Assembly: GCA_050084515.1 (NCBI GenBank)
Contig: CM114271.1
Span: forward strand, 186,001 to 250,000
Length of the DNA: 64,000 nt
Reading direction: 5' to 3'
Source of the DNA: Blasia pusilla
Taxonomy: Eukaryota
A program made the position numbers and the translations under genes. Below the pieces are notes generated by a model. That model was not told where the DNA came from and ran no database searches. It saw only the letters and a list, made by a program, of their open reading frames with translations. This document shows positions 22,701-51,187 of this stretch, piece after piece. The first letter of the stretch is position 1, and every line of letters starts with the position of its first letter.

Positions 22701-23689
22701 CTGTCTTAACAATATCAAAGTCTGGAAGGATTGGTAGAGTACGAGGTTCATCTATTGAAGGAGGAGTGAACTCTGGTAGCTCTCTATTGGTGTGAGCAAG
22801 TTTCATCCTAGAAATGAGATGGCTTGCTTTTGTAGAACTCAATTCTATAATCATGTGAAGGGGAAGGTGAAATTCATGACGAAGTGTGCGGAGCTGGTCT
22901 AGTCTTATGCCACCAGAAGCAATGTTGAAAAGTCTATTGGCTTGAGAACGTGTGAGTGTTGTCTCCTTGAAATCAACTTGTTTATAACGTAGTGCCTCTT
23001 TTTGTATGCATGTAAAACAATGAGAGAAGGGAAGATTATAATTATGAGTGAAGAGTTTAGGGTGTTGAGAACTACAAGTATGCGATGAATAAAAATAAAT
23101 GTGTGATATAAAGTGTAAAATTTCAATGTACCTGTTGCTGGGCTGTCTTTGTTGTGTAGACGGAACTTCTAATCCCAATCTTTGCCTTGGGTTTTTATTG
23201 CTTGGATCTGGCGATTGATGACACCTTTCTCCCAAAATGCTGGAACTAGCCCTAAGTTGTCACAAAACCATATTTGATTTTCTATAGGCTAGACAAACTT
23301 GGGGGCGTCCGCCTCAGGAATACTCTCAATGTCATTGAGTATCATGGACGCGAAGTCCATATAGTTTGCGGGTACCTATAGGGTAGTTAGATACAAGAGA
23401 TGAAAGAATGTACCATGGAAACTGTAGAGGTTAAGCATAACAAACTAATCACTAGATGAAGCAATTTTTGGAGTGTGCGACGGTATGTTGAACTCGTGTG
23501 TGACCATCTGGTTGGTTGTACTAGCATCTCGCTGAATGTGTGTGGCCTCAGCCTGATGAACATGTTGCAAGAATGACATAAATTGATTTGATTGTGGAGA
23601 AGGCTTCCTGCCTCTCGTTGAAGAGTTGCTGTCACCTGAAGCTATCTTGCACACAATGTAGAAGAAATCTAACTCCAAAAAGCAAGCTT

Positions 23690-26600: not shown

Positions 26601-28136
26601 AAGGAGCGAGAGGTTGAACAAAGTGAAATGGACTATCTCAACTGATACATTACAAGTGAGTAAGGCTTGAACAGGGAAAATGGGCTGAATGTATGTCTTT
26701 ATCTGAAGTGCAAGTAATCAAAGAAGGAGCGAGAACCTGGAAACAAGAAGGGAAATATTCCAATCTCTATAGTGAGTCTTCTGTCATGTGATGCGCCTAT
26801 GGAGTTTGTAAAGAAATGTTCCCTAATATTAGCTTCCTTTTTGAAGTAGAGGCAACCGTTGTAAAAAATGCATGAGGACTTTCTATTACATATAGGCAGG
26901 CAGTATGTGATGTCTTGGAGTATATTTAGCTCTAGTTGGTAGGGATTGTAAGTCATGCTATGGATAACTTGACCTTTTTCTTGGGCAGCTTTTTATGGAT
27001 GTTACCACTAATCCAGGAAGTACAACTAAACTTGCAGACGGATTGGGTAGTTCAAGAAGACATTTGTAGTCTTTCTAGAGGTCATTGATTGCAAAGTGGG
27101 TGAGAAGTACTTGCTTTAGACTATCAATAATAGCTTCAATCTTATCTCTTGATGCTGATTCCATATTCCAAGCAACAAGTGGGGAATCGATGAGTGATGC
27201 AGTGTGAGAAAAAAAAAAGTGACTAGATCACTGAAATCTTTACAAAACTTAGAGATACAAAGTGGCCTAGTTCGTCCGTACGCTCATAGAAGAGCTTCGA
27301 TGGAACCTGAAGATGCAGATAACTCGACATACGAGAATTCGCTACCGCTGCGGCTCTCGACTATTTCACTACTTGGGAAACTAGGATTATCTAACCCTAC
27401 ATTGCATCAGGGTGCCCCGCACCCGGGGCACCCTGATGCAATATAGGGTTAGATAATCCTAGTAATGCTACTCCGTAAACCACCTACGTCATATTACTAT
27501 GACTCCTTCGACGTCTAAGTCGGAACCATAAATCTAGGCTTCTCCTCATACAAGGGGGCCGATCAGATTAATGGTGTTCAGAGAAGTGGATGTTCAGAAT
27601 CCAACAATATGATTGAAGAATCCTTTGTGGAATCCATTAAATTTGTTGATAATACCAATTCTAGAGTCTACAATAGATAGTAGATGTAGATGAAATGGAT
27701 TGGGAGCTAATATGCTACGTATGTAAGCAAGAGTCATGTAGACATTTAAGCTAGTACATGGTTGATCATTGGTACAAAGATCACAGGCATAGAACTCTCC
27801 TTCCTTGGGAATAATGTACGGTGTAAGAAAACCATTACACAGAGCATAGGGAGGATAAGTGGTTGATTGTACAACGCACATTCGTGAACGTGGTGTTGAG
27901 TAAAGGACTACACCACAATACCCACAACATTGCATAGAGAGTATAAATGCATTGCAAATATCTTTCCCCTTAGATAATAAGGATTGTGCATTGGTCCAAT
28001 GGGAGCATACAAGCGTGCACTGGAGCTTTTCTTTGAGGATTTGTCGTGTACGGGCTGTTGGCCTGTGTGCTTTTAGGCGATTTTTGTGTGGTACAGTAAT
28101 TTGAGTTCTTTTGTTAGTATGAGGCCCGCAAGGCAT
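23690..28136 (-). pseudogene. Helitron Rep (HUH) / PIF1-like helicase, multiple stops and frameshifts, interrupted by a solo LTR
   Basis: Rep motifs GMPYFFLTLT, YDLQGRGSLHCHIIFW and YLVKYALK (25679-26527). Helicase motifs LTGSPSCGKSY and VATTGIAA (~24790-24900), LIIIDECSM, LVGDKAQLPPV, MRH..D.EYLAFLNIVR, and YAITAHK...FAPGLLYVMLSRV (~23760-23875). Cys-rich N-terminus at 27607-28136. Confidence 0.9.
27203..27606 (-). mobile_element. Solo LTR of the same Copia family as 43986-44432, inverted orientation
   Basis: Reverse complement is nearly collinear with 43986-44432 (TGTTGGATTCT...TTTTCTCACA). The flanks TGCAG and ATATG do not form a TSD. Confidence 0.9.
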
Positions 28137-28821: not shown

Positions 28822-31800
28822 TCAAAGTGGTTTGTTTAAAATACTTGGCACTTTTTTGAGGGGCAGAATTGGTTGGTGGATTCCTACTCCTACCTCTGAC
28901 TCTCTTAAAACTACCAGTAACACATAGTACATATGCTTACAAGGGAAATACCTTTTGCCACTTGTCTCTCTTTGAACAAAGTCATCACATGAACATGTGG
29001 GAAAGCAACAGATGTGCACCACATACACCCCTGTGACACTTGAATTTACAGTGTTGTTCCTGACCCAATACATCCTTGCTATTCCATTCCCACTCTGGAC
29101 ATCTTTCGTGGCGATGATCTCCATTTTTGCTACCCGAGCTGATGCAATTCGCTTTGCTCTCTCCACCGTTGGCCTACATATTCTGTTTCTCTTCACCCCA
29201 TTTCTAGACTCAAACAGAAATAGTGGATTGAGATCATCCACCTTCTCCAGATACATGTTGACATCAATCTTGGGTTGAATACGAAATGCAAAGGTCTCTG
29301 TAATGCGAACATGCTCTAAACTTCCTCCTTCTATAAGTCTGAAACCAGCACTTGTAAGATTGTCCACTTCTTCTTGAGTGCAATTCGTACCTGCGGCGAT
29401 GGGCCAAATCATGGGGGTATTCCCCGGAGCTCCAATGGCAGCGGGATAAGACTTCCGGAAAGCGCAAGATTCATTTGGGCAAAAGAAGTACTTCAATTGA
29501 TCCCTGGAAATGTGAAACGATCAAAGGTTTTGATTCCCCAAAACCCAGGCAGTGGTCGTCCAGTCCTTGTACAGTTCTTATTTAGGAAAGTGCCGCATGC
29601 TCTCCTAATGCCATCAGATCCTGCCCTGCAAGTGGGTCCACGTCCGGGGTTGCTCTGAAATATATGCCAGCGTTTCAGGTTGCAATCCACCTCAATGACC
29701 GGAATCCCATATTGTTGAACCACCCCAGCGACCGGATGTTGCGAACTTCCAACAACGGAGGGCTTTTGAAATAAAAAATTCACTGATTTTGGAGAAGTTA
29801 CTCCATCACGGATCTGGGAGTAGTCCGGGATCCCCAAATACCTAGACAGCGTAGTTTCCTCATCCAAATCAATCACCGGATTCCTTCCTTGATGATGCCT
29901 CTTCACCTGCCTGAAGTCAAGATACTTATCTGGTCTTCACGAGTCTCGCTCGGACTGCTCTACCTCCATCTGTATGGGACGTCTGGAATCGCGCCCATGA
30001 ATTTCCCCACCAATGTTTACGTCTTGCTCAAGGGGAGTTCGTGGTACGCACCGGTTGAAGGCTTCCACATAGAGTTTTTCATCATTAGATCTCACAGCCG
30101 CCCTGACATAGAGCTCGTAGATCAAAGGCCCCCTTCCTTTTGTTATGCCTTTTGTGAGGAAGATATGGGATGTTGCAGATTGTAGCATTGCTCTTGCCTG
30201 GTCTTGTTGGCATGCTTCCACAAGTGAAATTCTTTGGCAAGCTTGTGACAACCTCCAGGAGGAATGAACACTTTCTGCTCCACTTGTGTTGGGGCAGAGG
30301 GCATTTTCATGAATGTTCAATCCCTGCAACGACGACAATGTGAGAAGGGAACAAAAATAGCTCAGAAGTCAAAGAAATAAGCTACCTGTCGGAACCACAT
30401 GGGTTGCAAGGCCGAGGCATCCCATGAACGACTCTGCGACCCGTCGGGTCTCGACGTGTTACAACACCCAGGAACCACCTATTGCAACCCGTCCTATTCC
30501 GACGGGTTGCAAGAACCTTTGGCCACTCTGGGCTGGAAGATCCAAGTGCAAGTCATCCGAAACCCATCTGGGTCAAACTGTTTCCAGGCCTTGTATACAT
30601 GCAACTTGCATACTTGTATATGAGTTGCACCAAAATTCTTGATGCAACCCGTCGGTTTCCGACTGGTTGCACACTCAGAAAACCCGTCCGTTTCTGACGG
30701 GTTGCACACTTGGGCAACCAGTCTGTTTCCGATGGGTTGCACATTCAGATAACCTGTCGCATCCGAAAAGTTTCTTGGTTTCTTCGGTTTGAAATCCCTA
30801 TAGTGTCCACACTTCTCAACTTGAGCTGCAACTTTTCCAACAATTCTCTGCGTGAGCTTGACAAGACGAAATAGTGAACTCACATGCCGTATGAAGTTTC
30901 CCCATTGTCTCATACGTACAGTCCACCAACTCAGCCAAGAGCACAATTCTTTGTACTTCCCCTTAATCGCATGCTTCCTCCACCACCCATGAAGTTCTTC
31001 TTGGCATTCCATGGTCCGTTTCAAGATTTTGCTGTCCTTACATCGTTGGAGTAGAGTGACATGCTCTGTCCTCTTATTCTCCTTGATGCAAGATTTGGTG
31101 TAACGGGTCACAGACTGTTGCCAATGGAAAGCATCCGACCTTTCCCTCTCCGGTTGAAACTCTCCACCCCAGAACACTTCCCTGATAGCAATCCACCCAG
31201 GTTGTGCATTGTCCGCCATGAACCCATAAATTTCCGGAGATAGCCTTTTGTTTTCCTTCACCACCTCCAATAAGAGTAACCAACACATCTTCAAACTGCC
31301 AACGTCTTCTGCTTTTACTTCACAGACAAATATAGTTTTGAGTCCCTTCTCCACATGGTCATAAACGTGAGCACCCATTGTCAACCATCCGTTCAGCACT
31401 CTGTAGCAAATATCAAAGCTTACCTAGCTGCCCTAAAAATCCTCCCCTTCCCTCATTCGATCTATAAGATCGAGGCCATTCGACGGACCTGTCGTTGATA
31501 TTTTGAAGATATAGACCCTGGATCCTTCACCTCCCTGGCCCATGAACTGCCATCTCTGAATGAATGGAAATATGGAGTTGGCCTTGATTCTGGAAATGGC
31601 ATCCATTTCGGCCATCTTTCCATCCAATACCCGTATTTGATGCAGCAAATTCCGGAAGCATTCAGGATCAACGAGCAATGTGAGATTTTCCCAAAGTTGT
31701 TTCTCCTCAGCAGCTGTGATCTCGCCCTGTCCAGGGATTCCAAGCAATTGTTCAAAAATTTGTGATGTTGTTGTGAGCTTGATCACTCCGGGCTTTGAAC

Positions 31801-32896
31801 CCGGAGAGTTTCTGTAGACCTCGGCCACTTTCTTCGCCACATCCTCCTTGATGTGTCTCTGAATTGCATCGGTCACAGGATGAGTGTGGGAGCCAACATG
31901 AACTGCCAACCTTGTGTACTCTGACGTGGAGCCCAAGTCGTGGACAATGAAAAATATGTTTGCAGGACACGCTCCAACGCAGAAAGGGGATGCCTGACAA
32001 TGAGGACATCGATGGCCTCCTGGCGGTATGGTGGCACCGACCTCATATGGAGTTTCTGCATTCTTGGGGGGGAATTTCGATGTATTGACCCGCCCGTTGC
32101 GCTCTAGATACGGGCATGCTGGATTTCTACACTCTAAGGCTCCAACGCATTGGCGGCGGGAGACAATCCAAGGACCATCTAGAATTGAAGCACTAGTCCG
32201 TTGAAGCTTGCACCATCGATGACAATCAGACTTTCTGTCCATACCCTTCAAGCGTCCTCCATCTTTCTTTTGAGCAAGAACAGCAAGTGGAGGCAACTCA
32301 AAAATGCAATTTCCATCGTACGTGGGCGGCAGCTCGTTGACAAGAATGTGCTTGAACATTTTCAAGGCTAGAGACGATAGCAAACTATTGCCTGATACTT
32401 GCAAGAGTAACGAGTAGGCGGACAGAGGGCCCGGTTGGTGTCCGATAGATCCATTGAGGCTGACGACATCCAAAATGTCTTCAGGAAGTACAACATTGTT
32501 ACGAGCGTGTGAAGTTGGAGTCGATGCCGAATCTATTGAGGTAGGAGTTGCAAACGCAGAGCTCGGTGCACTAGGAAATTCTTGACCATCTACTTGGGAA
32601 ACGGAGGAATTCAGATGCAAGCTGTAAACCCTGTAGTGACCATTTGCTAGAGGTAGGAGATTCCCTACTTTACGGCCTGCAATCACTGGCTGGACTATCT
32701 CACCTATTATGTCCTCCATACCGTCCATCCTAACATCCTTGGATACAAAGATGGTTCCAATTTGGAGAAGAAATCGAACTGAGAGAAAATTTTCATCCAC
32801 TGGTATGAAAGACTCACGAGCTTGCGGCCGAACGATTTCTGATTGAGGAAGGGTCGCTAGATGACTACCATAAGTGAGCTTCACATAATTCTCCAT
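28822..32896 (-). pseudogene. MULE-type DDE transposase with N-terminal GCM-like Zn domain and C-terminal SWIM Zn finger; 2 exons (intron 30324-30883); nonsense and frameshift lesions
   Basis: 31433-32896 and 30494-31399 share one frame, broken by two TAGs (DF*GS*VSFDICYRV). Catalytic candidates are SFD (31412-14), FMAD (~31212), DAFHW (MULE C/DxxH) and, after the phase-0 GTGAGT...TTGCAG intron, PNTSGAESVHSSW. SWIM: CSCDDF...PCKHMYYV. GCM-like: RRQCVGALECRNPACP...CPHC...C...GSHTHP. Confidence 0.85.
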
Positions 32897-32972
32897 TTCC
32901 GAAAGATTCCACTGGGAGGAGACTGAGAATAAGAATGAGGATAAAAATGGGAATGGGAATGAGAATGTTTAA

Positions 32973-32978
32973 TTTATA
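32973..32978 (-). promoter_or_regulatory. Candidate TATA box of the transposase gene
   Basis: TATAAA on the minus strand ~80 bp upstream of ATG 32896. Confidence 0.35.
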
Positions 32979-33399
32979 GTGAATAGGGACTCAGATTCTC
33001 CTAACAGAATATGACTGACAAGATGAAGTTTGGTACGTGAGATTGTCTGACATGATGGATTCAATTCTGTTGCAACTTGTCGGAGTCCGATGGGTTCTAG
33101 AATTTGGGAATCAGAGACGTGGGTTGGGAAGCACCCAATTCTAATTTTTTTTCCGTGTCCCAATACAAGTTGGAACCCGTCAAAGTCCATTGGGTTGGTA
33201 TCTGCTTCTTGCCGACCAATGGTCTTTTGAGTTGATTTTGCTAGCATCAAACACGAGACATCGCTTGCATTTGCTAAGGCAACCAATCGTTGGGGACTTT
33301 TGCAGGATTGTCCAACTCAGGGTAAATCTTGTGACCCGTCGGATTGCTAAGGGTTGCCTCGGAACTATGCATTGTCGCATTGTTACCCGAGGGATAGAA

Positions 33400-33880
33400 A
33401 AGCGTGCAACTTGTCGCTAATCGACGGGTTGCCCTGGTACCTCACCTATTACCCCAAGATAAGGGAAGCGTGCAATCTGTCGGATTCGGATGGGTTGCGC
33501 AAGTGCCTCACCTTGTAACGCTTACATGAAGGAAGCGTGCGACCCGTCGGCCTCCAACGAGTTGCGCGAGTGCCCCGCCTTCTTGCCTGAAGACGGCGGA
33601 GGCGCGCAACCCGTCGGCCTCAGACGGGTTGCGCAAGTGCCTCGCCTTGTAACGCTTACATAAAGGAAGCGTGCAACCCGTCGGCCTCCGACGAGTTGCG
33701 CGGGTGCCCCGCCTTGTTATCCCAAGACCCGTGCAACGCACCGGTCTCTGACGGGTTGCGCGGGTACCTCGCGTTGTTGCCCGAGGACGGCGGAGGCGGG
33801 AAACCTGTTGGTCTCCGATGTGTTTCCAAGATGGACGGATGCTTGGAACCCGCGGGAAGCGTGCAACCTGTCGGAGCCTT
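33400..33880. repeat. Array of palindromic repeats (~67-bp period) in the divergent intergenic region
   Basis: gcgtgcaacccgtcggcctc(c/a)gacg(g/a)gttgcgc units at ~33405, 33470, 33539, 33605, 33673, 33732 and further on. Confidence 0.8.
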
Positions 33881-33977
33881 CATGTTAGTGGTTTTCACGT
33901 CCAGACTTCCATAACGACCAACACGTCGCCGTCGGAACGACGATGCAACCCAACGGTCAGCCCAACGGCTCGAAAAG

Positions 33978-33985
33978 TATAAATA
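33978..33985 (+). promoter_or_regulatory. Candidate TATA box of the cargo gene
   Basis: TATAAATA ~240 bp upstream of ATG 34224, just downstream of the palindrome array. Confidence 0.4.
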
Positions 33986-35437
33986 GGCGAGGGTTCGCTC
34001 ATTTCCGGTTTTTCATTTCGCGAACTTAATTGCTCTTTTGCGCAGCTGCTGACCAGATACCAAGGGGCGCTTTACACGGCGACTCACCGCGAGACGATTC
34101 GAGCAAAAGATCGCGAGACGATTTAAGCGACTCATCAAGGTGACTCCTCAAGGCGACTCATCAAGGCGACTCATCGTGCACAGAAAGCAATTTCCTTGTC
34201 CATAGGAGGCATTTTCGGGAACAATGACAAGTAAAAAAACTCAAGCAAGCAAGGCTGGGAGCTTCACTCCCAAGTCCGGGACTCCTGCGTCACCATCTCC
34301 AGGGCCTCGTTCGGCCAATGAGATAAGGCATCAAGAGATCAAGGAGCGTGAAAGGGAAGCGGATATGCACAGGCAGGAGCTTCTTGCAAAATGTATTGAG
34401 GAGGCGCTCGAAAAACAGAACGCAGAGGCTGAGGCATCGCAGGCCTTGAAGAAAAGGATTGCCGAGGAAAAGCGTGAAAAGAAGCTTATGGACTCGTCGG
34501 TGAGGAGAGGAGAATTGGAAAAAGCTCAAAGGGAAAAAGCGATTGCGATTGAAGAAAGCCCGCCCATCCAACCGAAAGTGTTGAGATGCAAGAAATGTCC
34601 CTGATGAAGTCCGGGGACACAATCAATATAGCGGAAATGGCCGAAGTTCAAGTGACGGACGATGAGGCCATGAGGGCCACCAGCGTGGAGATGGTGGATA
34701 TCGCTGAAGAGTCAGGAGAGCGGTCTTCCTCGTCTCTTAGCCCGGCGGAAGAAATCGACCTCTATCGGACCGATGAGTTTCCAGTGGACTTGCGAGCTGC
34801 TGTCCCAGAGCAGTTGTCAGGCCAAGACACCAACCCAATCTTCGAGCGAGTAAGATACAATCTTTGTTCTTTGAGTTATGTGAAGGCCCATCTTGCAATT
34901 CATTGGCAATTGAGTGTAGTTTATTGACCTTGTCCCCGTTGTGATAGGTGGTAAAGCAATTGGCACTGATGGAGGGCCAGAACGCCCCGAGAATTCCACT
35001 TTTCCGATTCCGCACAATGGAGTACGTCTGCGAAATTCAATCTGACAAGAATATTGCAAAGTTGAAACAATCGGCAGCGACAATATCCTACGTCGACAAC
35101 TTCCCTCCGTTCTATGTTCAGCCTTACGATGAACATGGAACCCAAGCGCTGGTTACGGAGGAGGACTTGGAGGCGCTCGACACATTCGGGAGGATGAGAG
35201 AACAGGAATTCAGAAGGGCGATTGAGGGGACGGAATTCAGGTGGATGCAGAACCTGTATTTCTTCATATGGGATGAAAACCACAAGTTCATGGCGTGGAC
35301 CCACTTTGCAGAGGAGCGCCCAAACTCATTGGAGGCGCATTTTTGCGTAAAGGCAGTCGTGCTACATCCATACCCTCATCACATGGCGACGGTGGAGATG
35401 GCCATGCATGCCATGAACACTTAAGTTTCCTCTTGCT

Positions 35438-35980
35438 GCAAACCATCGGACTCGAACAAGTTGTTTGACTGCCGCTATTTTTTGGATGTTTTTGGTCGAA
35501 AGCAACTCGTCGGAGTTTGACGAGTTGCTCGATTGGCCGTTGTTTTAGGAAGGTTTTGGCCGAAAGAAACTCGTCAGAGTCCGACGAGTTGCTCGACTGG
35601 CCACTGTTTTAGGATGTTTTTGGCCGAAAGCAACTCGTCGGACTCTGACGAGATGCTTGACTGGCCGCTGTTTTAGGATTTTTTTGGCCGAAAGCAACTC
35701 GTGGGAGTCCGACGAGTTGTTCGACTGGATGCTGTTTTAGGATGTTTTTTTCCGAATGCAACTCGTCGGAGTCTGACGAGTTGCTCGACTGGCTGATGTT
35801 TTAGGATGTTTCTGGCCGAAAGCAACTTGTCGGAGTCCGACGAGTTGCTTGACCAGCCGCTGTATTAGGATGTTTTTGGCCGAAAGCAACTCGTCGGAGT
35901 CCGACGAGTTGCTCGACTAGCCGCTGTTTTAAGGGCGTTTTTGGCCGATAGCAACTCGTCGGAGTCCGAAAAGTTGCATT
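35438..35980. repeat. Intronic minisatellite: 9 x 64-bp units, each with the palindrome GCAACTCGTCGGAGTCCGACGAGTTGC
   Basis: Palindrome starts at 35438, 35502, 35566, 35630, 35694, 35758, 35822, 35886 and 35951. The linkers are near-identical (tcgactggccgctgttttaggatgtttttggccgaaa). Confidence 0.9.
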
Positions 35981-36684
35981 CGCAGGCACGGGAAGGTGAT
36001 CGGAGTAGGGGAGCTTGATTTTTGGCGTCAAATTGCAGCTTTAATTGAAATTGCGCAACCTGTCGGACTCCGACACGTTGATATGTTCACTTTTTTCGTG
36101 GAGACCACTCTCAAAATACAAATTATCTGACAACCCGTCGGAGTCCGACAGGTTGAAACCAGGCAATCACAAATCTGAATGCAATCCGCCGAACTCCGAT
36201 GGGTTGCAAAATTTAGCTTGTAGCTACCATTCCGACCATGAGCTGTGACGACCTGTCAAAGTCCGACGGGTCGCAAGAACCCATGTAGCTTGCAAAATTT
36301 CTTATATTGAGTTTGGATGTGCAGGATTGCATCCGAGGGGAATGTCACCCACCATTGGATCCAAGATTGCGTGAAGAAAGTGCCAACGACGCACCCGACA
36401 TAGTACAAGGGGTTCTTGGGCGACGCCCTTGTAAATGAGATGCTGGCAAAGGGGGCTCAAATAAAAAAAAAGACTTGGGCAAATAATTTTATTTCCCAAG
36501 ATGCAGCCATGACAATCCTTTGCTAGTCGAAGATACAGGCCACCAAGAAGAGCGCTTGATTGGAGCTGGAGCGGTGTCGTGTCGAGAATCTTTCTTCGAG
36601 CAAGGGCGGGCCTTCTAGCTGCGGTAGATGCGGTCGATGCAAGGTGAACTCTCTAATAAGTTCTCCTTTTCCAATACAAAATTA

Positions 36685-37716
36685 TGATGTACACTCTCCA
36701 TTCTCTCACGATAGGTATCACAAATGGAAGTGCCGAGGCGATCACTTCTTTGTAACATCGGACCCCGAAATTCCTAACTATAAAATCCCTATAAACTATT
36801 TTACGTTTGTACACGAGGAAGATAGCACAACTAGTGTTAAAACCTACTTGACCAGGCCTATTGACATCCATGGATCGCTATATAAGGACATACAAAGTAC
36901 AATCCCATGTCCTTCCATATGTGACGATAGGAAGAATCACCGGAGTTGGAGATTGCATGACCTGGTTCATGAACGCCTCCCCAAAGTAATAAACTAAATA
37001 GCAAGTGAACCAGTGCCTATCTACAAAGAGTACCTTGACATGGTAAGGATTGAGGAAAGGAAAGTCGGGCACAGCTCGTGCTCCACCCCTATCCATGCTT
37101 GACACACATTCTCTACTCTCCTCAAGAATGGGTTTTGGCGGAGTTATTCTCCCAAGAGGGGTAATCCACTCTCATTGGGGAAGTAACAAGCCAAAACTTC
37201 CGCTATTTTAGTATGACTAAACTCCTCTACGGTGACAAACCTCTCATCCCCACACACACACACCACATTCCAGAAATCTCTCAAAGAATAGACCATAGTC
37301 AAGTTACTCTCCCAAGAGGGGTGATCCACTCTCATTGGAAGAGCAAGCAATCCCAAAGCCATACACTCAAGAGAGACACGAGAGACTCAAGATGTGGAAT
37401 AGAAGGTGATGAACCCTTGAAGGTCCCTCCTCTTTATATACTCACAAGGATCCACAAGAGTATTTTAAATAGAACTTATCTTATCTTGTGCCACATGGCT
37501 TCCTCTCAAGGCTTAGCCAATCACATTTTGACACAAGTAGATTTCCTCTTATCTCTTCCAAAATATCCTCTTTTACCCACTTGATATTTTCCAAATTACC
37601 CCAACTAACCTAGCCACCAACCAAGACTACTTTTCCTTTTCATTAAAACAACTACTTTACTTTTATAAAATCATCTTTTATTTATTACCTCCTTTTCCTA
37701 AAGTTGGGCCCGCATA
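36685..37716. mobile_element. LTR-like insertion (probable solo LTR) inside the cargo gene; same family as 1710-3900
   Basis: Homologous to both halves of the repeat at 1710-3900 and separates coding blocks 36325-36643 and ~37810 onward. Exact ends and TSD uncertain. Confidence 0.6.
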
Positions 37717-40344
37717 AAAGAGGCACCACAAAAAGGTTTAAACATAAGAATCTCCTTTTTCTAAGCCAATTTACTTAATACTAATGAAACTCTATCTAAC
37801 ACTTAATGACGAAGGAGTTTACACACTGGTTGATTTTACTATACGACAGCGGAGGGAGAAAGTGTCTGTGTCTGAGCATGCTAAGTTCATCCAAGCTGTA
37901 GTATCTACAACTATGAAGTACACTGCAAGCAAGATCCAGCGCTACATCGCCATTCTCAACCTTGAACTTGGCCCTGATTTCTACAAGGAGTTGAAGGCGA
38001 TAATCAAGCGCCAGCGGAAGAGGGATGAAGATCCGCAGGGTTGGATTGGGAAGAAAGTGTCTCTCGATCGCGTCCATCGATTTGCCTTGTCTGGAATTTT
38101 GGAATTTAGGAGAATCCCACTAATGAAAATCATTCTCGAGGGCACAGAGGCCCAAAAGAGGGCGGCACACCATCCTCCGGGTGTCTCTCATCGAGTGATC
38201 TCCCATTGGCTCCGTGAATGGTCATTCTGGGACACGTTGCGGCTTCTCGGAAAGTCCATGCTCGTGGGTCTCCAAGCGGAGTTGAAAAGAATAGAGCCAG
38301 TTCCGGAGGAAGCAAACCTAGAGAGTGCTGAAGATTTTGAACTTTGGCTGGATGACATGCGGGACAAGCCCATAAAAAACCCAGGCTTTAGGACGATCTT
38401 CAAGGATCGCATCCTCCCTCAGGCAGACCTTGATGAAGAAATAGAGGCGAAGAAAAGGGATTTTGCAAAGAAAAAGCGAGATCTTCAGGAGCAGGCAGCC
38501 GATGCATCTCGACTAAGAGCTTCCCCACGCATGGTGTTCAGGTACCTCGTCCATTGTAAGAATGCAGGTACATGGCAAAAAATACCGGCATCTTGCAAAT
38601 TGTGGGCTTCTCCGCCTGATGGAGAGAAATTTTTCATGTACAACATGGAGATGGCTCAAAGCATGTCCGATTGGGAGGTGCTCGATCTGGCTGGACTGCA
38701 ACGACCCTGAGGACATAACCGAGAAAAATCTATGCCTGCTCTATGATGCAGTGGCCGCAAGTAGGGACGACATCCCCAATTTGGTGCAGCCTGAAGACTT
38801 TTTCGAAGGAGATGCGCAGGAGCAAGCCCTCGAGACAGCGGAGTTGGTGTCAGTTCCCAAGCATCGACACCCGCCATCGACAAATTGACAACGCTGGGAT
38901 GGAAGCTTCAACGAAATGGGCACGCTCCCTAGACGGTCCATGGGGAGGTCGAGGAGGTGGCGGTGGATCTCCTCGTCGCTGATTAGCCCTCGGGATTGCG
39001 CTTGTGGGACGAGAATCCGCCCGACGGTGTCCCAAACTGGAATGTCCCTCTTTCTTATGACCAGATCGCGCTCCTATTTTCCTTTGCAGACGCTTATCTC
39101 AGTGACATGGGCTGTTTCTTGGTTTTGATTGGAGGGAGCGAGGACGAGCTCTTCAACCTACAGTGCGTCAAGAGGTCACTAAAGTGGAGGACGGCGCAAT
39201 CGTGGGTCATCAAGAACGAGTACCCACTCTGATCCGCGACAAGTCAAATCCGAGTAAGGGCTCTAAATCCATATCCAAATTGTCTTGCTCTGACGGGTTG
39301 CATCTCTACATGCAACCCGTCGAATTTTCTGAGCTGGAGACTTTGGTGGTGCAATCCGTCTGAAAGCGACGGGTTGCAAATTTACCGCAAGTCTCCATTG
39401 GGTGAATGCAATCCGTCGGAACCCGACGGGTTCCAAGTGCTTATGCTTTTTCCTTGTGTTTATGGAATGATACAACCCGTCTGAAAGCGACGGATTGCTG
39501 TTAGCCAACCATGGGCTGCTCTAAGCCAACAACCTCTTGCCTTCCGACGGGTTGCTCACGGCAAAAAAAATCACTAACACTTGTAAAACAACCCGTCGGA
39601 CTCCGACAGGTTGTTCCAATGTTAAGACTATAACTAAGTTCTCTGGGGTTAATCGAAGTTCTTTGGGAACGAGTTGCACGTTGTGTCACCATTCTAATAG
39701 TATGCCTTTCTTGTTGTTGCATATTGAAATTAGCTCTTTCCTGTCCCTGACATTTTTTCCAACCTGCTTCTTTACAGATGGACCACTTCTTTGTCTACTG
39801 TTTTGTAAGGCCCGAGCTGAACTTCCAAGTGTTTCAGATCCTCGATCTAGTGGATCCATGCTCCAATGGGTACAACTTAGATAGTTTATACAATTCCCCC
39901 CCGGGAATTTACATGCAAGACGGTACCCTCTTACTTGGAGGAAGGGAAAAGTCACCAGCCCTGATGCAAACGCTCATCGAGCTCTGCTCAAGGCCGGGTG
40001 ACTTGGTGTTCGACTTAGTGGGCCTTTCAGGGGCGAATATCAGAGGCGCTTGGCAGAGTGGCAGGAACATTCTTTGCCTTGAGGGAAGGCAGGAAATATT
40101 TGACCTTTGCAAAGAGGCAAAGGCAGATTACGACACGCTAGTTGGGGCGTACAACTCTCCTCTGAAACCGAGAGCTCCGGTTCCAGACTCACCATTGGTA
40201 ATGACACCATCGTCACTTCCCACGATTCCAAAAATCGAGAGGGCAAGACCGACAGTAATTCTGGAAGAGCTCTCGGACGATGACATGTGAGTTCAAAGAA
40301 CTCAAGGACCCAGCTTGACTGCAGCGTTTTGGAGTGGGGATTCA

Positions 40345-41450
40345 TTTGATGACGAGGCAGAAGAATTCATAGACTATATCAAATGTACACTTCCGAGCTC
40401 CCTTTGGATGTAATAAAGCACAAGCGTTTTTTGAACGATGATGGTGTTTGTAAAAGTTTGTTGAATATTTTTTTTGGTCTTGTCGATTGTGATCGTCTAT
40501 GTACTCCGACAGTTTATTTTGCAACCCGTCAGATTCCCACGGGTTGCAACTTTCCACTTTTTGACCACTACACCTTTTTAACCACTTCCAGGCAACGTGT
40601 CGGATTCCGACAGGTTGGCTGCATGAGTGACCAGACTCTTTCCCTGTTAGTCCAACTTTAGAGGCATTGTGGCAGGCTTCTTCACTTTGCCTCCTTCCCC
40701 TAGTATCGTCAAACAAGTCGTAGGCTTCTTCTCTTCTCTAAGACGTGTTGGATTCCTACTATCTGTCGGATTGCCATGATGGTGTTTCCAAGGACGGAGC
40801 ACATATTGATATTGGATGGGTGTCACCTTGCAGAACGTACAAGATATACTGTCGAGGAAGGCGATGGGACTCAAATCAGGTTACATGGGACCGTTATGGT
40901 GTACCTAGGGGGGGGGGGGCAAGGATCTCGAATTCGCCAACATTTTCAATCCCCGTCTACAATCGGCCAGAGGAGCCACTTGTATCCCAGGACATTATTT
41001 TTGTACAGGAACCTAGGAGTTTTAGGAGTAAATTTGTAGATGACGAGGCTGAAGAAATCATAGAGTAGATCAAATGTACATTTCCGAGCTTTCTTCGGAT
41101 GTAATAAAGGACAAGATTTTTTCAAACGATAATGGTGTTTGTAAAAGTCTGTTGAATACTTTTTTTGGACTTGTCGATTGTGTTCCTCTACCTACTCAGA
41201 ATGTTTATTTTGCAACCTGTCTAATTCCGACGGGTTGCAACTTTTTAACCATTTCCAAGCAAGCTGTCGGATTCTGACAGCTTGGCTGCTTGAGTGATCG
41301 GACTCTTTCCCTGTGAGACCAACTTCTGAGGCATTGTGGCAGGCTTCTTCACTTTTGGCTCGTTCCCCTAGATTCGTCAAACCAGTTGTAGGCTTCTTTT
41401 CTTGTCTAAGACGTGCAGGATTCCTACTACCTGTCGAATTGCCATTTCGG
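40345..41450 (+). repeat. Imperfect direct repeat (~430 bp; ~40345-40775 and ~41038-41450) covering the 3' end/UTR of the cargo gene
   Basis: 'gatgacgaggc.gaagaa.tcataga....atcaaatgtaca.ttccgagct...ggattcctacta.ctgtcg.attgccat' is present twice. Confidence 0.85.
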
Positions 41451-42433: not shown

Positions 42434-42577
<144 letters not shown>

Positions 42578-43985: not shown

Positions 43986-44432
43986 TGTTGGATTCTCAAC
44001 ATCCACTCCTCTGAGCTCCATTGATCTGATCGGCCCCCTTGTATGAGGAGAAGCCTAGATCGATGGTTCCGACTTAGACGTCGAAGGAGTCATAGTAATA
44101 TGACGTAGGTGGTTTACGGAGTAGCGTTACTAGGTTTATCTAACCCTATATTGCATCAGGGTGCGGGGCACCCTGATGCAATATAGGATTAGATAAACCT
44201 ATTTTTCTTCGTTTCTATTAATAGAAAAGAAGAAAAATAGGTTAAAACCCTAGTTTTCCCGAGTAGTCAAATAGTCGGGAGCCGCAGCGGTAGCGCATTC
44301 TCGTATGTCGAGTTATCTCCCAGTTCAGGTTCCATCGAAGCTCTTCTATGAGCGCACGGACGGACTAGGCCACTTTGTATCTCTAAGTTTTGTAAAGATT
44401 TAAGTGATTTCGTCACTTTATGTTTTCTCACA
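43986..44432 (+). repeat. Copia 5' LTR (447 bp) containing two long hairpins
   Basis: TG...CA termini, immediately followed by the PBS. Homologous to the solo LTR at 27203-27606. Confidence 0.9.
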
Positions 44433-44504: not shown

Positions 44505-47500
44505 ATGGCTACTTCTTCGTCAGTTCGTGCTCGCCCTCCTCCGCTGGGTGAAGGGAAGTTAGATGGGTCTAACTATACGTTGTGGAAGTTCAAAATGAGA
44601 AATGTTCTCGAATCATTTGAGATCTGGGAAACGGCCACAGGGGTCGATTCAAATCCACAAGCTAGTTTGAGTTCTGCCTGCTCATCTTCATTTGGGGATA
44701 TCGATCCTGTTGTATTGTTGGCATGGAGACGCAGAAACGCTGATGCTCTATATGCAATTGTCACGAATGTAACTGATTCTGCATGACTCTCATTCAACAT
44801 ACAACCACTACTGCTGAGGCGTGGAACATTTTGAAGAATCAGTATGAAACGAGGAATGAGACTCGGATTCAGAATCTGGAGAATCAGCTTACGTCCGAGA
44901 AATTTTGAGAAGGAGAAAGCGCGGAGCAATTTTTGACAAGGATCAAGAATCTTCAAGATCAGATGGCGTCCGTAGGAATTTCAAAGTCTAGCGAAGATTT
45001 TGCACGTCAGTGCATAAGGATTTTTCCTCCAAGGTATGATAGTTTGGTCACTACACTGAATACTCAAGTAAGACCCACGCCGCTTACTTTTGAACAATTT
45101 AGTGCAATGTTGGTAGAAGAGGAAATGCGCTTCAAAGCAAGAGAGGGAAGTGATGCAGCATTTACTACCAACGTACAGAGAGGTAGAAATCACGATAACA
45201 GTTCAAATGTCAAGAATAAATTTCCACGAAAAGCCTTCAAATGCTTTTATTGTGATAAGCTAGGTCATCTTATCAAAGATTGTAGAAAGAGGAGTCAGGA
45301 TGAGAAGAACGGTTGTTTAAGATCTAAGAAGGAGTCTGGAAATTCTGTAGAACTGGGAGAACATGAAGTAGATGCTTGGGTAGCAATAGAAGAGTTTTGC
45401 ACACAGGCAGAACATTCCACTAAGACAAAGAGTGAAGATGCATGGGTGCTCGATAGTGAAGCATCTAGGCATATGACCAATCATAATGATTGGTATAGCT
45501 CCTTACAGCCTCTACAGGAGCCCATCGTTGTTACTGTTGGGAATAATGCAAAGTGCCCTGTAGAAGGGAAAGGCACAATTTCTTTAGTCTCACAAAAAGG
45601 AGATGAAAAGAAGTTAAGCTGATGTCTTTATGACGTACCCGAGTTGAAGCGAAATTTGATTTCAAGCAGTATTATGTGATCGTGACCTAGAAGTTCGTTT
45701 CAAGAAAACTGGAGCAGTCATTGAGGATGCCAATGGGAAAGTAGTGAGTGAAGGTATACGACGTGGAAATATCTACGAGTTGTATGCTTTCACGATAAGT
45801 GTAGGTACAGATCTTAGTAGCAGTAAGTTGTGGCATGAAAGATTTGGTCACCTAAGCTTTCCCTTACTAAGTCAGATGCAGAAATCTGGCATGGTTGCTG
45901 ATTTACCAACAATTTTTGGAGTGTCGGATACTTGTGAAGCTTGTATGATGGGCAAGCAACACCGACAACCATTTCCACAAGAGTCCAGCAATAGGGCAAA
46001 GGCTCCTCTAGAGTTGATACATGCTGACCTTTGTGGTAAAATGAGAACAGTGGCATTAGGTGGTTCTTCCTACTTCTTTTTAGTTGTCGACGATTATAAT
46101 AGGAAGATGTGGGTGTGTTTCCTTTGTGATAAGGCAAGTGCTTTTAGAAAATTTAAAGTATGGCACAAGCTGGTTGAGAATGAGACAGGAAAGAAGGTAC
46201 AAAAGCTTCGCACCAATCAAGGAGGAGAATTCTTATCAACAGAATTCAACAAATATTTGGGAGAGCATGGAATCAAGCGACAGTTAACCACGGCACATAC
46301 ACCACAACAAAATGGAGTTGTTGAGCGTCAAAACCGTACAGTGGTGGAGATGGCAAGATGTATGATGAAAGCAAAAGGTTTGACAGAAGGATTTTGGGCT
46401 GAAGTTGTTAATACTGCCGTATACATTCTAAATAGAAGTGCTACCAAGTCAGTGCAAGGCATAACTCCTCATTAATCATACTCAGGTAAGGTACCATCAG
46501 TCCAACATTTCAGGACTTTTGGTAGTGAGTGTTTTGTACATATTCTTGAAGCATCGAGGACCAAGTTGGAGTCCAAGAGCAGGAAGTGCATCTTTATGGG
46601 ATACAGTGATGAGTCTAAAGCTTATCGCCTTTGGTGTCCTGAGGAAAAGAAGATGCTTGTGAGTCGTGATGTGGTGTTCCAAGAACAGCCTCGTCAAGTG
46701 GCGGATATCAGTGGTCCGTCCACATTATCATCAAATGAAGAGATAACCCACCAGAGCACACCACAAATGTTTACACCAGATCATCAAGAAGAAGAATTTG
46801 GTGATGATTACAAAGAGCAACCTGCTCTTCCACTACGGTCATCATACCCTAAGTGGATAAAGCAGCTCTTGGATGGTAAAGATCCACCAGCAACTGATGA
46901 AGTTGTTACACATCCAAGGAGATCCAAGAGACTAGAGGAGCAGAATAGAGCTTCCGCACATCTCGTCAATATGGCCCTGATGACAGAGGTCTTGAAGGTG
47001 GAAGAGCCATCATGCTTGGATGAGGCCCTGGCTCATCCTCAATGGAGAGAGGCCATGCAGATGGAGATGGACGCTATTCAGAGAAATAAAACTTGGACTT
47101 TGGTTGAAAAGCCAAAGGACAGGAAGATAATACGCACCAAGTGGGTGTACAAGACCAAGTACAAGTCGGACAGTACATTGGATAAATTCAAAGCGAGGTT
47201 GGTTGCACAAGGATGCTCATAAATCGAAGGTTTTGACAACTATGAGACTTTTGCTCCCACTGCAAGGATGACAACCATTCGAATTGTTCTAGCGGTTGCA
47301 GGAACAAGACGTTGGCATGTATACCAATACGATGTGAAGTCTGTTTTTCTGAACGGGAGTCTCAAGGAGGAGGTATATGTTTCTCAACCACCAGGTTTTG
47401 AGACACCCGGATCAGAAGAGAAAGTTTGTTTACTTCATCGAGCATTGTATGGGTTGAAGCAAGCCCCAAGGGTATGGTATTAACGAATAGATACATTCTT

Positions 47501-48520
47501 TCGAGAGAAGGGTCTCATCAAGAGTCCTTCAGAAGCAAATTTTTATGTGTTTTGCGAAGATGGGATGTATATGTTGATAGTTTTGTATATGGATGATCTG
47601 ATCATCACAGGAGATCACAGTAGGAAAATAGAGGAAATGAAGGGAGTGTTGAAATCTGAGTTTGAAATGTCAGATTTAGGTCTTCTGCACTACTTTATAG
47701 GACTGGAAATTTGGCAATCGGATTCTATTTTTCTCTCTCGTAATATGCTAGAGAAATCTTGAAGGCATTCGGGATGACCGAGTGTAAGGCAGTGGTCTCG
47801 CCAATGGAGGTAGAGTTGAAACTCTCGATGGAGGATGTTTCACCATTGGTAGATGAAATGTTATACAGAAAGCTTGTAGGCAGTTTGATATTTTTGTGTA
47901 ACACTAGACCAGACATTAGCTTCGTGGTGGGAGTGTTGAGTAGGTTCTCAACTAAGCCTCGTGAGAACCATTGGAAGGCAGGGATGCGTGTGTTGAAGTA
48001 CATCAAAGGTACTATCGAGTACGGCATCACCTATGGAGCAGGGACGGAAATGATAGGTTTTTGTGACTCAGATTGGGCAAGAGATTCAGATTCTCGAAGA
48101 TCAGTTTCGGGTTATTGCTTCTTGGTAGGATCAGGTGTGGTGTCATGGGTCAGCAAGAAGCAACCTACAGTGGCTCTCTCTTCTACCGAGGCAGAGTACA
48201 AGGCGGCTTGTTATGCTTCTTGTGAAGCAGTATGGTTGAGATGGATATTGAGGACATAGAGAAGCACCGAGAAAGTGCTCTTTGTAATGTGGTGTGACAA
48301 TCAGAGTTGCATTGCCATAGCACATAATCCTGTGTTTCGTGCTCGTACGAAGCACATAGAGATCCACTACCACTTTGTTCGTGAATTGATCGAAAGAGAG
48401 GTTTTGAAGTTAGTCTATTGTCCAACAGAGGATAATCATGCAGACATCTTCACGAAAGTCTTGAGCGGAGATCAGCTTCACCGACATCTGAAGGATCTTG
48501 GCATAGGTCCAAGACAGTAG
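44505..48520 (+). pseudogene. gag-pol: Copia gag-pol polyprotein with several stops and frameshifts
   Basis: KLDGSNYTLWKFKM (gag N-terminus), CFYCDKLGHLIKDC (zinc knuckle), WVLDSEASRHM (protease), LWHERFGHL (GAG-pre-integrase), LIHADLCG / TPQQNGVVER (integrase), KARLVAQG / LYGLKQAPR / LYMDDLI (RT), GFCDSDWA / TEAEY / RTKHIEIHYHFVRE (RNase H). Confidence 0.95.
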
Positions 48521-50209: not shown

Positions 50210-50848
50210 CTAGAAATCCTCATCTATTCTGAATACTGGTTCATTGTAGTTTCCGTAGTCCAGACGCCGTCTTCTTACGCCCAAAATTGGCTCCTTCCTT
50301 TGAGAAGCTCTCTGACAGTACGAATCAAGACGTTCGGTCAACTGCTTCACAAGGGACCATTCGTGCTGAGCCTTGGCTTCCAAGACCTCCTGTATTTTCT
50401 CAGCGCACAATTCTCCTAAACCATGGAGGCGAAAGAAGTCTGCTTCTTCTTGCAGTGCTCTCAGATCGGAAATCTCATCCAGCCAGACCGTTCCGTTCCT
50501 CAGATAGTTTAGGACATGCTGGAATCGTACCGGGTCTCGATCGATCCAGAATCCCTCATCCTTCATGTGCCGAGTTGCCCAAGCGGCCAGCATAGAATTG
50601 CTGTCCACACAGAGCGTTTGCGTCGAAGTCTCCATCAACTTTCCTCCGACATTCAAAAGCACCCGATTCTTACTCTCGCTCTTCTTCCTTGCGCTCTTCT
50701 CCCTCTCATCCTCTCCATGTTCCGCATCACACACTTCCTCCATCTTGTCTTCGCCGCAGCCCCCTGCACGACTACTCCATGTCTCGTCTCCTCCTCTTTT
50801 CCCCTCCGATCGATTCTCTCCGATTGTAGACTGTTCCCTTCCTTCCAT
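50210..50848 (-). CDS. BTB/POZ (KCTD / K+-channel tetramerisation-type) domain protein, single exon, 212 aa from the first in-frame ATG
   Basis: Intact ORF with RVLLNVGGKLMETSTQTL...SMLA...FWIDRDPVRFQHVLNYLRNG...LQEEADFFRLHGLGELC. The ORF track starts at GTG 50911; the first ATG is at 50848. Confidence 0.88.
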   Translation of the reverse strand: MEGREQSTIGENRSEGKRGGDETWSSRAGGCGEDKMEEVCDAEHGEDEREKSARKKSESKNRVLLNVGGKLMETSTQTLCVDSNSMLAAWATRHMKDEGFWIDRDPVRFQHVLNYLRNGTVWLDEISDLRALQEEADFFRLHGLGELCAEKIQEVLEAKAQHEWSLVKQLTERLDSYCQRASQRKEPILGVRRRRLDYGNYNEPVFRIDEDF

Positions 50849-51187
50849 GACATTTCGCTGCGCCGGATTACCACTACGCAATCCGACCCGATCACCTCCT
50901 TTCTCCTCCACGTCCGTCTATAGTCCGCGTCTCTCTCTCTCTCTCTCGAACTGCCCGAGGCTCCGGGCAGAGTAACGGAGACTTCGACGAACTTCACGCC
51001 ACCGTAACCAGCCATCCACCTCTCCGCTTTACGGGCGAGGGAGGATTCGAACTTCCAGTTCCTGCTACCTCAAAGTAGCTGTTGCTCGCCGTAACGACTT
51101 CTATTCTTAGCTGCCTCCACCGTATCCCATGCTCCATCCTATTCCTAGACCGGGGCCTCTAGAATCTAAATCAGTGTGGGTCCCACA

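Follow-up and report, generated by a model that had tools for sequence, protein, structure and literature searches.

A dead copy of a methylase-derived, probably non-catalytic accessory gene in a putative giant MULE-like transposon of Blasia pusilla

The Gene and Its Lesions

The DNA analysed here, called the window, is a stretch of 64,000 nucleotides of Blasia pusilla (GenBank assembly GCA_050084515.1, contig CM114271.1, positions 186,001 to 250,000 of the forward strand). It contains a long element with terminal inverted repeats (TIRs) and, inside that element, a damaged gene whose predicted protein resembles the beta-class N6-adenine/N4-cytosine DNA methyltransferases. A first-pass annotation of the window, made from the letters alone, had picked out two methylase-like strings and had placed them in one spliced frame. 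Direct reading of the + strand bears out both the strings and their positions: 38963-39127 translates as VDLLVAD*PSGL...VPNWN...LLFSFADAYLSDMGCFLVL, and 39943-40083 translates as REKSPALMQTLIELCSRPGDLVFDLVGLSGANIRGAWQSGRNILCLE. The spliced frame holds as well, in that the two stretches can be joined in phase 0 across an intron that starts with a GT at 39254 and ends with an AG at 39776-39777.

The first of the two exons (38888-39253, +) carries the half that resembles motifs IV, V and VI, with the segments AVDLLVAD*PSGL, VPNWN, LFSFADAYLSDMGCFLVL and WVIKNEYPL; it matches a Ceratodon protein by BLASTP, and it aligns collinearly with CcrM and phage methylases. The GT..AG intron that follows (39254-39777, +) contains copies of a palindrome at about 39273-39612. 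Its placement is supported by the loose ends of RNA reads at 39776 and by an intron at the same protein point in a metagenome locus, L001. The second exon (39778-40290, +) runs for 170 codons without a stop and encodes, besides an acidic tail, the half with motifs X, I and II (REKSPALMQTLIELCSRPGDLVFDLVGLSGAN...LCLE); Pfam, M.RsrI, the Ceratodon protein P0004, hhalign and RNA depth all bear on its identification. Farther upstream, an open frame at 37849-38710 (+) is probably the N-terminal part of the same gene. Its similarity to the N-terminus of the Ceratodon relatives is collinear, though below significance (E 0.12).

This copy of the gene is dead. Three in-frame stops interrupt the frame of the first exon, a TAG at 38930, a TAG at 38984, within "motif IV", and a TGA at 39230, and upstream of that exon the coding-looking frame shifts at about 38700 and about 38885. 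Further damage is apparent from raw reads, those of one whole-genome sequencing (WGS) run (X17) and of three stranded RNA runs under the same species label, which were mapped on 37700-40400 at 80% likeness. The WGS sample comprised 1,966 million letters, about 1/100 of the run. Loose ends of WGS reads accumulate at 37848 (427 and 485 reads on the two sides), at 38680 and at 38847-38850, which indicates that this copy departs from its family by an insertion and by rearrangements. The family sequence begins at 37849, and the DNA to the left of that point is another repeat. It is probable that a nested insertion of another repeat occupies the interval between about 36300 and 37848. Within the window, a tblastn search found no second copy of the gene, and Rfam gave no matches.

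The DNA at 37700-37848 belongs to a different sequence family. It has an RNA depth of 94-242 in the three runs, with the first mate on the + strand, and RNA reads leave the window sequence at 37848 into one common sequence (118, 234 and 149 reads). An open reading frame (ORF) to its left, 36560-36997, resembles 1695-2041 of the window at 39-50% protein identity and about 74% DNA identity.

Relatives in Ceratodon and Elsewhere

A HMMER scan of 1.84 billion representative proteins gave six matches with an E-value of 1e-3 or less. P0002 and P0003, which scored best, are low-complexity repeat proteins and were dropped as spurious. The real relatives are the fragments P0005, P0006 and P0007 and a protein of the moss Ceratodon purpureus, P0004. 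Since the first exon matches residues 435-522 of P0004 with a BLASTP E of 3e-9, it can be placed in the same family as the Ceratodon proteins; the second exon matches P0004 at E 4e-14, collinearly with the match of the first.

Ceratodon purpureus has at least four paralogues (P0004, P0008, P0009 and P0010), all 758-810 amino acids long and without interruption. By their locus tags they lie on four chromosomes, and they are annotated as ordinary hypothetical genes. They are 89-92% alike in the domain, compared with 78-80% over the whole protein. A metagenome scan with P0004 found a single locus, L001, which matches residues 419-749 of that protein at E 5e-84; when the exon of the window copy was used instead, there were 234 pattern matches, none of them a relative, and a word-based search with the second exon among proteins of 98-314 amino acids found none. 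Between distant lineages, 30-42% identity is kept.

Homology to Beta-Class Methyltransferases

Profile matches to the S-adenosylmethionine (SAM)-dependent methyltransferases had been named as the test on which the first-pass assignment would stand or fall, and they were found, with PF01555, M.RsrI, DpnA, CcrM and a phage set. In a Pfam scan of the second exon, N6_N4_Mtase (PF01555) was the sole family, at E 1.8e-4 and 22.0 bits, and the alignment covers positions 165-220 of the 221 in the profile. Five relatives were scanned in the same way, and each of them aligns to the same last 50 or so positions of PF01555 (E 1.8e-4 to 0.063; 13.6-22.0 bits).

Structures in the PDB, searched by sequence with the second exon, gave the beta-class enzyme M.RsrI as the top match (E 0.005), with DpnA next (E 0.16); P0010 searched against the same library gave DpnA only, at E 1. 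A family profile built from alignment A1 matched DpnA/M1.HpyAVI (E 5.5e-5), then CcrM (E 0.016), and the bdelloid N4CMT chains less well than either (E 0.65-0.71). When the family was compared by hhalign with four phage proteins, which are genuine PF01555 members (E 6e-31 to 1e-44), the probability was 93.8% and the E-value 1.8e-7, over 54 columns spanning motifs X, I and II. In a language-model atlas, 22 of 30 neighbours of the Ceratodon domain are PF01555 clusters. Among the 15 phage tblastn rows listed, 11 are methylase or methyltransferase genes, three are unannotated records and one is a hypothetical protein, all with weak E-values (0.01 to 0.9). Beyond some 55 columns, the identity to any methylase is very low. 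Judged from these comparisons, the C-terminal half of the domain is a remote homologue of the beta-class N6A/N4C DNA methyltransferases, and to this extent the earlier assignment stands.

The other part of that assignment, namely the order of motif IV before motifs X and I, is likely, not proven, because the N-terminal half is linked to methylases only by collinear alignments. One of these is the HMMER alignment to CcrM, which places the family's "DlivaDaPeGl" on "DLIFADPPYNL", "LtDvGcill" on "LKDDGAIWVI" and "WvgyNplP" on "WRKSNPMPN", and which continues collinearly from DLIFADPPYNL through motif II (E 0.016). The domain would then have the beta-class order, IV, V, VI, and then X, I and II.

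State of the Catalytic and SAM-Binding Motifs

The catalytic motif IV of this class is (D/S/N)-P-P-(Y/F/W/H), and its motif I is the F-x-G-x-G loop that binds SAM. In the first-pass annotation the aberrant motifs of the window gene were put down either to decay of this copy or to a change throughout the family. The alternative resolves as both. The stop in motif IV is private to this copy, since 674 of 681 WGS reads have T at 38985, which turns TAG into TTG (Leu). The motif is nevertheless not restored: the read majority is D-L-P-S and not DPPY, and across the relatives compared both DPPY and FxGxG are replaced.

In motif IV, the window has D-stop-P-S, all four Ceratodon proteins have DAPE, and L001 has GAPE. 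The Pro is common to the three lineages, L001 is without the Asp, and none has an aromatic residue at the fourth position. In motif I, the loop reads V-G-L-S-G in the window, S-A-(N/S)-T-G in Ceratodon, S-A-S-T-S in P0005, L-A-S-T-G in P0006 and S-D-G-C-G in P0007. The canonical Phe is thus missing in all seven sequences aligned, the first Gly is found in P0007 only, and the second Gly is gone in P0005. Three residues are invariant in the same seven, numbered here by the second exon: the Asp after strand 1 (D79), the Ala that follows, and the motif II Glu (E102). In enzymes of this class, SAM is contacted by the Asp of motif I, a Gly-Ala pair and the Glu of motif II.

Among the 40 best-supported of the 752 differences between the reads and the window, two more bring the family closer to Ceratodon than this copy is. 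The majority letter at 39929 (652 of 954 WGS reads) replaces Leu by Pro, as in the Ceratodon DGTP, and that at 40037 (1,234 of 1,265) replaces Asn by Ser, as in the Ceratodon GAS.

Copy Number, Constraint and Expression

Mapping placed 21,772 WGS reads. Their depth, added up from the table, averages about 945, which amounts to about 0.13% of the letters sampled and to about 480 copies per Gb of genome. No more than 173 of these reads are at least 99% like the window sequence, and 13,977 are under 90%. With so few near-identical reads and so many diverged ones, the family must be large and old, and the copy in the window is one worn member of it.

At 80% likeness, WGS reads cover the second exon to an average depth of about 1,223, the intron to about 583 and the sequence just beyond the stop codon to about 204. 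This difference between exon and intron or flank, together with the shared intron site and the likeness of the Ceratodon domains, suggests that the gene was kept as coding while the family diversified.

Over the second exon, reads whose first mate lies on the - strand reach an RNA depth of 17-43 in the three runs, and those whose first mate lies on the + strand a depth of 0-6; with a library of the usual type, this corresponds to RNA of the + strand. The first exon has an RNA depth of 0-5. At 39776, the match of 14, 13 and 21 RNA reads in the three runs comes to an end, and all of them continue into one common upstream sequence, which shows that the acceptor is in use, though in other copies. 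Which copies are transcribed? The variant 40272 C>A is present in 76 of 1,226 WGS reads, yet in most RNA reads, and a 4-letter gap at 39957-39958 is present in RNA reads and in none of about 1,215 WGS reads. Variants so common in RNA and so rare in DNA indicate that a small subset of copies is transcribed. RNA reads also have five to six extra C after 39895, which are seen in none of about 1,200 WGS reads. The RNA-only variants at 39895 and 39957-39958 probably come from one rare expressed copy.

The 17.2-kb Element

The gene lies between a left TIR at 27203-27606 and a right TIR at 43986-44432, a setting that the first-pass annotation had missed. As aligned by blastn and MAFFT, the left repeat pairs in inverted orientation with 44432-43986; the repeats are about 400 nt long and about 90% identical, with 17.2 kb between the ends of the element. 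The flank of the TIRs, TGAT(G/AT)CAG, is nearly palindromic, so that it could equally be a continuation of the TIR or a duplication; the nine bases that follow agree, by eye, at three of the nine positions. Mutator-like elements (MULEs) make target-site duplications of 8-11 bp.

Each TIR contains a near-perfect hairpin, at 27380-27463 (40 nt, 98% complementary, with a 4-nt loop) and at 44129-44201. A perfect (AG)69 microsatellite lies at 42436-42574, in the right arm of the element.

The element contains a broken transposase gene on the - strand (28822-32968), made up of the ORFs 31433-32968, 30494-31423, 29493-29936 and 28822-29520, with in-frame TAG stops at 31433 and 31424. The last of these ORFs has a SWIM zinc finger at E 0.015 and 15.3 bits, below the cut-off of 19.6. 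The sole database relative of the transposase is P0012, with 37% identity over 545 residues. The MULE transposase domain PF10551 was not matched in Pfam by P0011 or P0012 at E up to 1, and P0012 has no relative in the PDB. The atlas neighbours of the transposase are MULE/ZSWIM RNaseH-like clusters at 0.88, under the atlas line of 0.9, and serve as a lead only. Based on the weak SWIM match, the atlas neighbours and the long termini, "MULE-like" seems the best label for the transposase and the element, and we hold it loosely.

Much of the rest is repetitive. A tandem array with a 67-nt period (33464-33717), in which each unit contains a CpG-rich palindrome, lies between the divergent genes, and a second array with the palindrome (35459-35977) has a 64-nt period and 8.1 copies. 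Downstream of the methylase-like gene, two direct repeats of about 430 nt (40348-41445), 82-88% alike, also contain palindrome copies; all three features came from repeat searches, the last with blastn as well. The palindrome, AACCCGTCGGANTCCGACGGGTT, occurs 18 times in the window with at most three mismatches, where none is expected by chance. All 18 matches fall at 30486-41236, hence inside the TIRs, and a looser repeat search counts 37 copies in the window. The sites are non-coding: they lie in an intron of the transposase gene, in both arrays, and in the intron and 3' flank of the methylase-like gene. Many of the palindromes have a GANTC core, which might recall the specificity of CcrM; it was given no weight, as it follows from arms that end in GA and TC.

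Two open frames on the + strand, 34206-34604 and 34948-35424, are flanked by both palindrome arrays. Neither has a Pfam match at E up to 0.1, and the second finds nothing in the PDB below E 0.46. Their position between the arrays recalls the inverted-repeat arrays that lie beside a ParB-like gene, PAG3, in the Plavaka elements of red algae (bioRxiv 10.1101/2025.02.11.637652).

Comparison with Known Systems

The PF01555 enzymes CcrM, DpnA/M1.HpyAVI and M.RsrI share with the predicted protein a homologous motif X-I-II region, the motif I Asp and motif II Glu and, probably, the collinear beta order of the whole domain. The predicted protein differs from them in scoring below the Pfam cut-off, in having D-L-P-S, DAPE or GAPE in place of DPPY, and in having a Ser/Ala/Thr-rich loop in place of FxGxG. 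In addition, its gene is eukaryotic, intron-bearing and transposon-borne, and it has an acidic tail and, at the N-terminus, a long region that these enzymes lack. The host enzymes MpDN4MT1 and bdelloid N4CMT likewise combine PF01555 with a eukaryotic host, but they are active, and N4CMT matches the family profile poorly, as given above; MpDN4MT1a and b of Marchantia group with prokaryotic N4-methylcytosine (4mC) methyltransferases.

The closest parallel is in red algae. According to the 2025 preprint cited above, the giant Plavaka DNA transposons of Bostrychia are 17.4-19.1 kb long and carry three accessory genes each; one of these encodes a PF01555 DNA methylase with a SET domain, and another, PAG3, is ParB-like with a 2-oxoglutarate (2OG)-oxygenase and lies beside tandem inverted-repeat arrays (10.1101/2025.02.11.637652). 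Homologues of these genes are reported from the Mutator elements of Chondrus, the majority of copies are degenerate with weak expression, and the authors compare the elements to VANDAL and its gene VANC (10.1101/2025.02.11.637652). The element described here resembles these in its length, in combining a transposase with a PF01555-type accessory gene, in its tandem inverted-repeat arrays, and in its degenerate, weakly expressed copies. It differs in its land-plant host, in a transposase that looks MULE-like and not EnSpm, and in the degenerate catalytic motifs, the comparison with the methylase gene, PAG2, being by description only. Pfam scans of the window ORFs and of the Ceratodon proteins recognised no SET, ParB or 2OG domain. 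This is not strong evidence, since HHpred was needed for these weak domains in the published elements.

VANC, an anti-silencing protein, is the product of an extra gene of VANDAL, a MULE in whose non-coding DNA short motifs are tandemly repeated (PMC5735166). The likeness to VANC would be a functional analogy only, that of an extra MULE gene combined with tandem short motifs, and binding or hypomethylation remains putative here; VANC is not a methyltransferase homologue, and a sequence relation to the present gene is not expected.

A fold kept while the catalytic or substrate residues are replaced is known from METTL14 and from the DIRS1 retrotransposons. In a 2015 survey (PMC4738411), the methyltransferase domain of DIRS1 is described as inactive and is proposed to act by binding, not catalysis. 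Both retain the amino-methyltransferase fold, and the DIRS1 domain also sits on a mobile element. They differ from the gene described here in belonging to other methyltransferase groups (M.EcoKI/TaqI-like and MT-A70), and the DIRS1 domain is part of a polyprotein, not a separate gene of a DNA transposon (PMC4738411).

Interpretation

We propose, with a probability of roughly 0.6, that the gene is a dead copy of a PF01555-derived, probably non-catalytic accessory gene of an abundant giant MULE-like TIR transposon. The C-terminal region of the encoded protein would have descended from beta-class PF01555 N6-adenine/N4-cytosine DNA methyltransferases. In each lineage seen, the (D/S/N)PP(Y/F/W) tetrad and the FxGxG SAM loop are replaced, and the Asp of motif I, a Gly-Ala pair and the Glu of motif II are retained. 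The protein would have lost canonical base methylation, and its role in the transposon may be that of an accessory factor that binds DNA or chromatin. A possible target is the element's own set of CpG-rich inverted-repeat arrays, by analogy with VANC of VANDAL or with the red-algal Plavaka accessory genes.

Several observations weigh against this proposal. The PF01555 score of the second exon is below the curated gathering cut-off of 26.7 bits, and none of the five relatives scanned attains it. The motif IV half alone, compared with the phage set by hhalign, aligns in the matching register with a probability of 3% (E 0.015), so that the reading of its residues as a degenerate catalytic motif would rest on two collinear alignments without statistical weight; moreover, motif IV is readable in three lineages only. 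P0007 retains G-x-G in motif I, and some members of the family might still bind SAM. AlphaFold2 models had pLDDT values (its confidence score) of 33.0 for P0004, with a 10-row alignment, and 42.6 for the second exon, with seven rows, too low to use. As for the transposon, no target-site duplication is demonstrable at this element, the linkage of the gene to a transposase is known from this one locus, and one database search for relatives of the transposase, among proteins of 453-1,444 amino acids, gave none from Ceratodon. Finally, the open frames at 34206-35424, rather than the methylase-like protein, might bind the palindromes.

Could the gene be cargo without a function? A methylase gene or fragment might have been captured in the manner of a Pack-MULE and carried along while decaying, doing nothing for the element. 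The many lesions of this copy, the large share of genomic reads that have diverged from it, and the low RNA depth, with its RNA coming from a minority of copies, are all consistent with such a passenger. Between copies that have diverged, however, the exons remain far easier to align than either the intron or the 3' flank; four Ceratodon copies keep their long uninterrupted proteins, with the domain more alike than the whole; and both the intron position and a substantial identity are preserved between distant lineages. On balance we regard this as unlikely. At the other extreme, the protein might still be a SAM-dependent DNA (or RNA or protein) methyltransferase with an unusual catalytic loop, which marks its own transposon with N6-methyladenine (6mA) or 4mC. 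The invariance of the SAM-contacting residues in all seven sequences, the G-x-G of P0007 and the Pro shared by all three motif IV lineages would fit an enzyme, and the red-algal PAG2 is described as a putative N6-adenine methylase (10.1101/2025.02.11.637652). Against this, no lineage has the aromatic residue at the end of motif IV, L001 has lost the Asp, six of seven sequences have lost the FxG of motif I, and the degenerate relatives METTL14 and the DIRS1 domain are regarded as inactive (PMC4738411). We consider a surviving activity improbable, more so than mere carriage.

That the gene belongs to the host, or is a domesticated copy that merely lies between repeats, might be suggested by the ordinary annotation of the Ceratodon proteins and by the small number of copies that yield RNA, among which there could be a domesticated locus. 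But a mean WGS depth in the hundreds in a 1% sample of the run does not suit a host gene, nor do the position beside a transposase inside 90%-identical, 400-bp inverted termini, a palindrome in the intron and flanks that within the window is found only inside the element, and paralogues spread over four Ceratodon chromosomes. We consider this very unlikely. A resemblance to methyltransferases by chance we find hardly credible at all: it is true that each single-sequence score is below threshold, that the N-terminal half is weak and that the predicted folds are of low confidence, but independent methods and libraries agree on both the family and the register, and five lineages match PF01555 at the same profile positions.

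The proposal of a non-catalytic accessory gene can be taken one step further, to a dead methyltransferase that acts as a sequence-specific reader of the CpG-rich inverted-repeat arrays in giant moss MULE-like transposons. This extension is tentative and, as it stands, improbable. If it were true, the protein would attach to the arrays, perhaps with base flipping, and would thereby either bring in the transposase or protect the element against cytosine methylation by the host. Plants would then have their own equivalent of VANC and of the PAG module of red algae, and the use of phage- or bacterial-type methylase modules for "self-epigenome-handling" would be old and recurrent in giant DNA transposons across the Archaeplastida.

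Significance

Red algae provide a published precedent for giant DNA transposons with an accessory gene of the PF01555 type (10.1101/2025.02.11.637652). What is new here is the land-plant lineage, the degenerate motifs, and a gene in which no SET fusion is recognised. Our literature search found no paper on a MULE or a moss transposon that carries an N6_N4 methylase, and land plants have few amino-methyltransferases of this type according to the survey by Iyer and colleagues (PMC4738411). Transposon accessory genes that handle chromatin are rare; the printed cases found are VANC of VANDAL and the red-algal Plavaka genes. If the proposal holds, the red-algal observation would be extended to land plants, and a high-copy land-plant transposon with a methylase scaffold minus its catalytic signatures would be a case of an enzyme turned binder in genomic conflict. 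The intact Ceratodon copies offer a concrete protein, and the palindrome, of 23-31 nt, a concrete candidate target. There is also a warning for annotation, in that such genes should not be named active DNA methylases.

Neighbouring Sequences

The left end of the element adjoins a Helitron remnant on the - strand (22612-27200), with Helitron_like_N at E 5e-20 (25679-26632) and a PIF1-like helicase at E 5e-9 (24328-24807). Directly after the right TIR, long ORFs on the + strand (44909-48259) resemble, by eye, the gag, integrase and reverse transcriptase of Ty1/copia. Farther to the right, a frame of 235 codons on the - strand (50210-50917) resembles, also by eye, a BTB/POZ protein of the potassium-channel-tetramerisation type, and is possibly a host gene.

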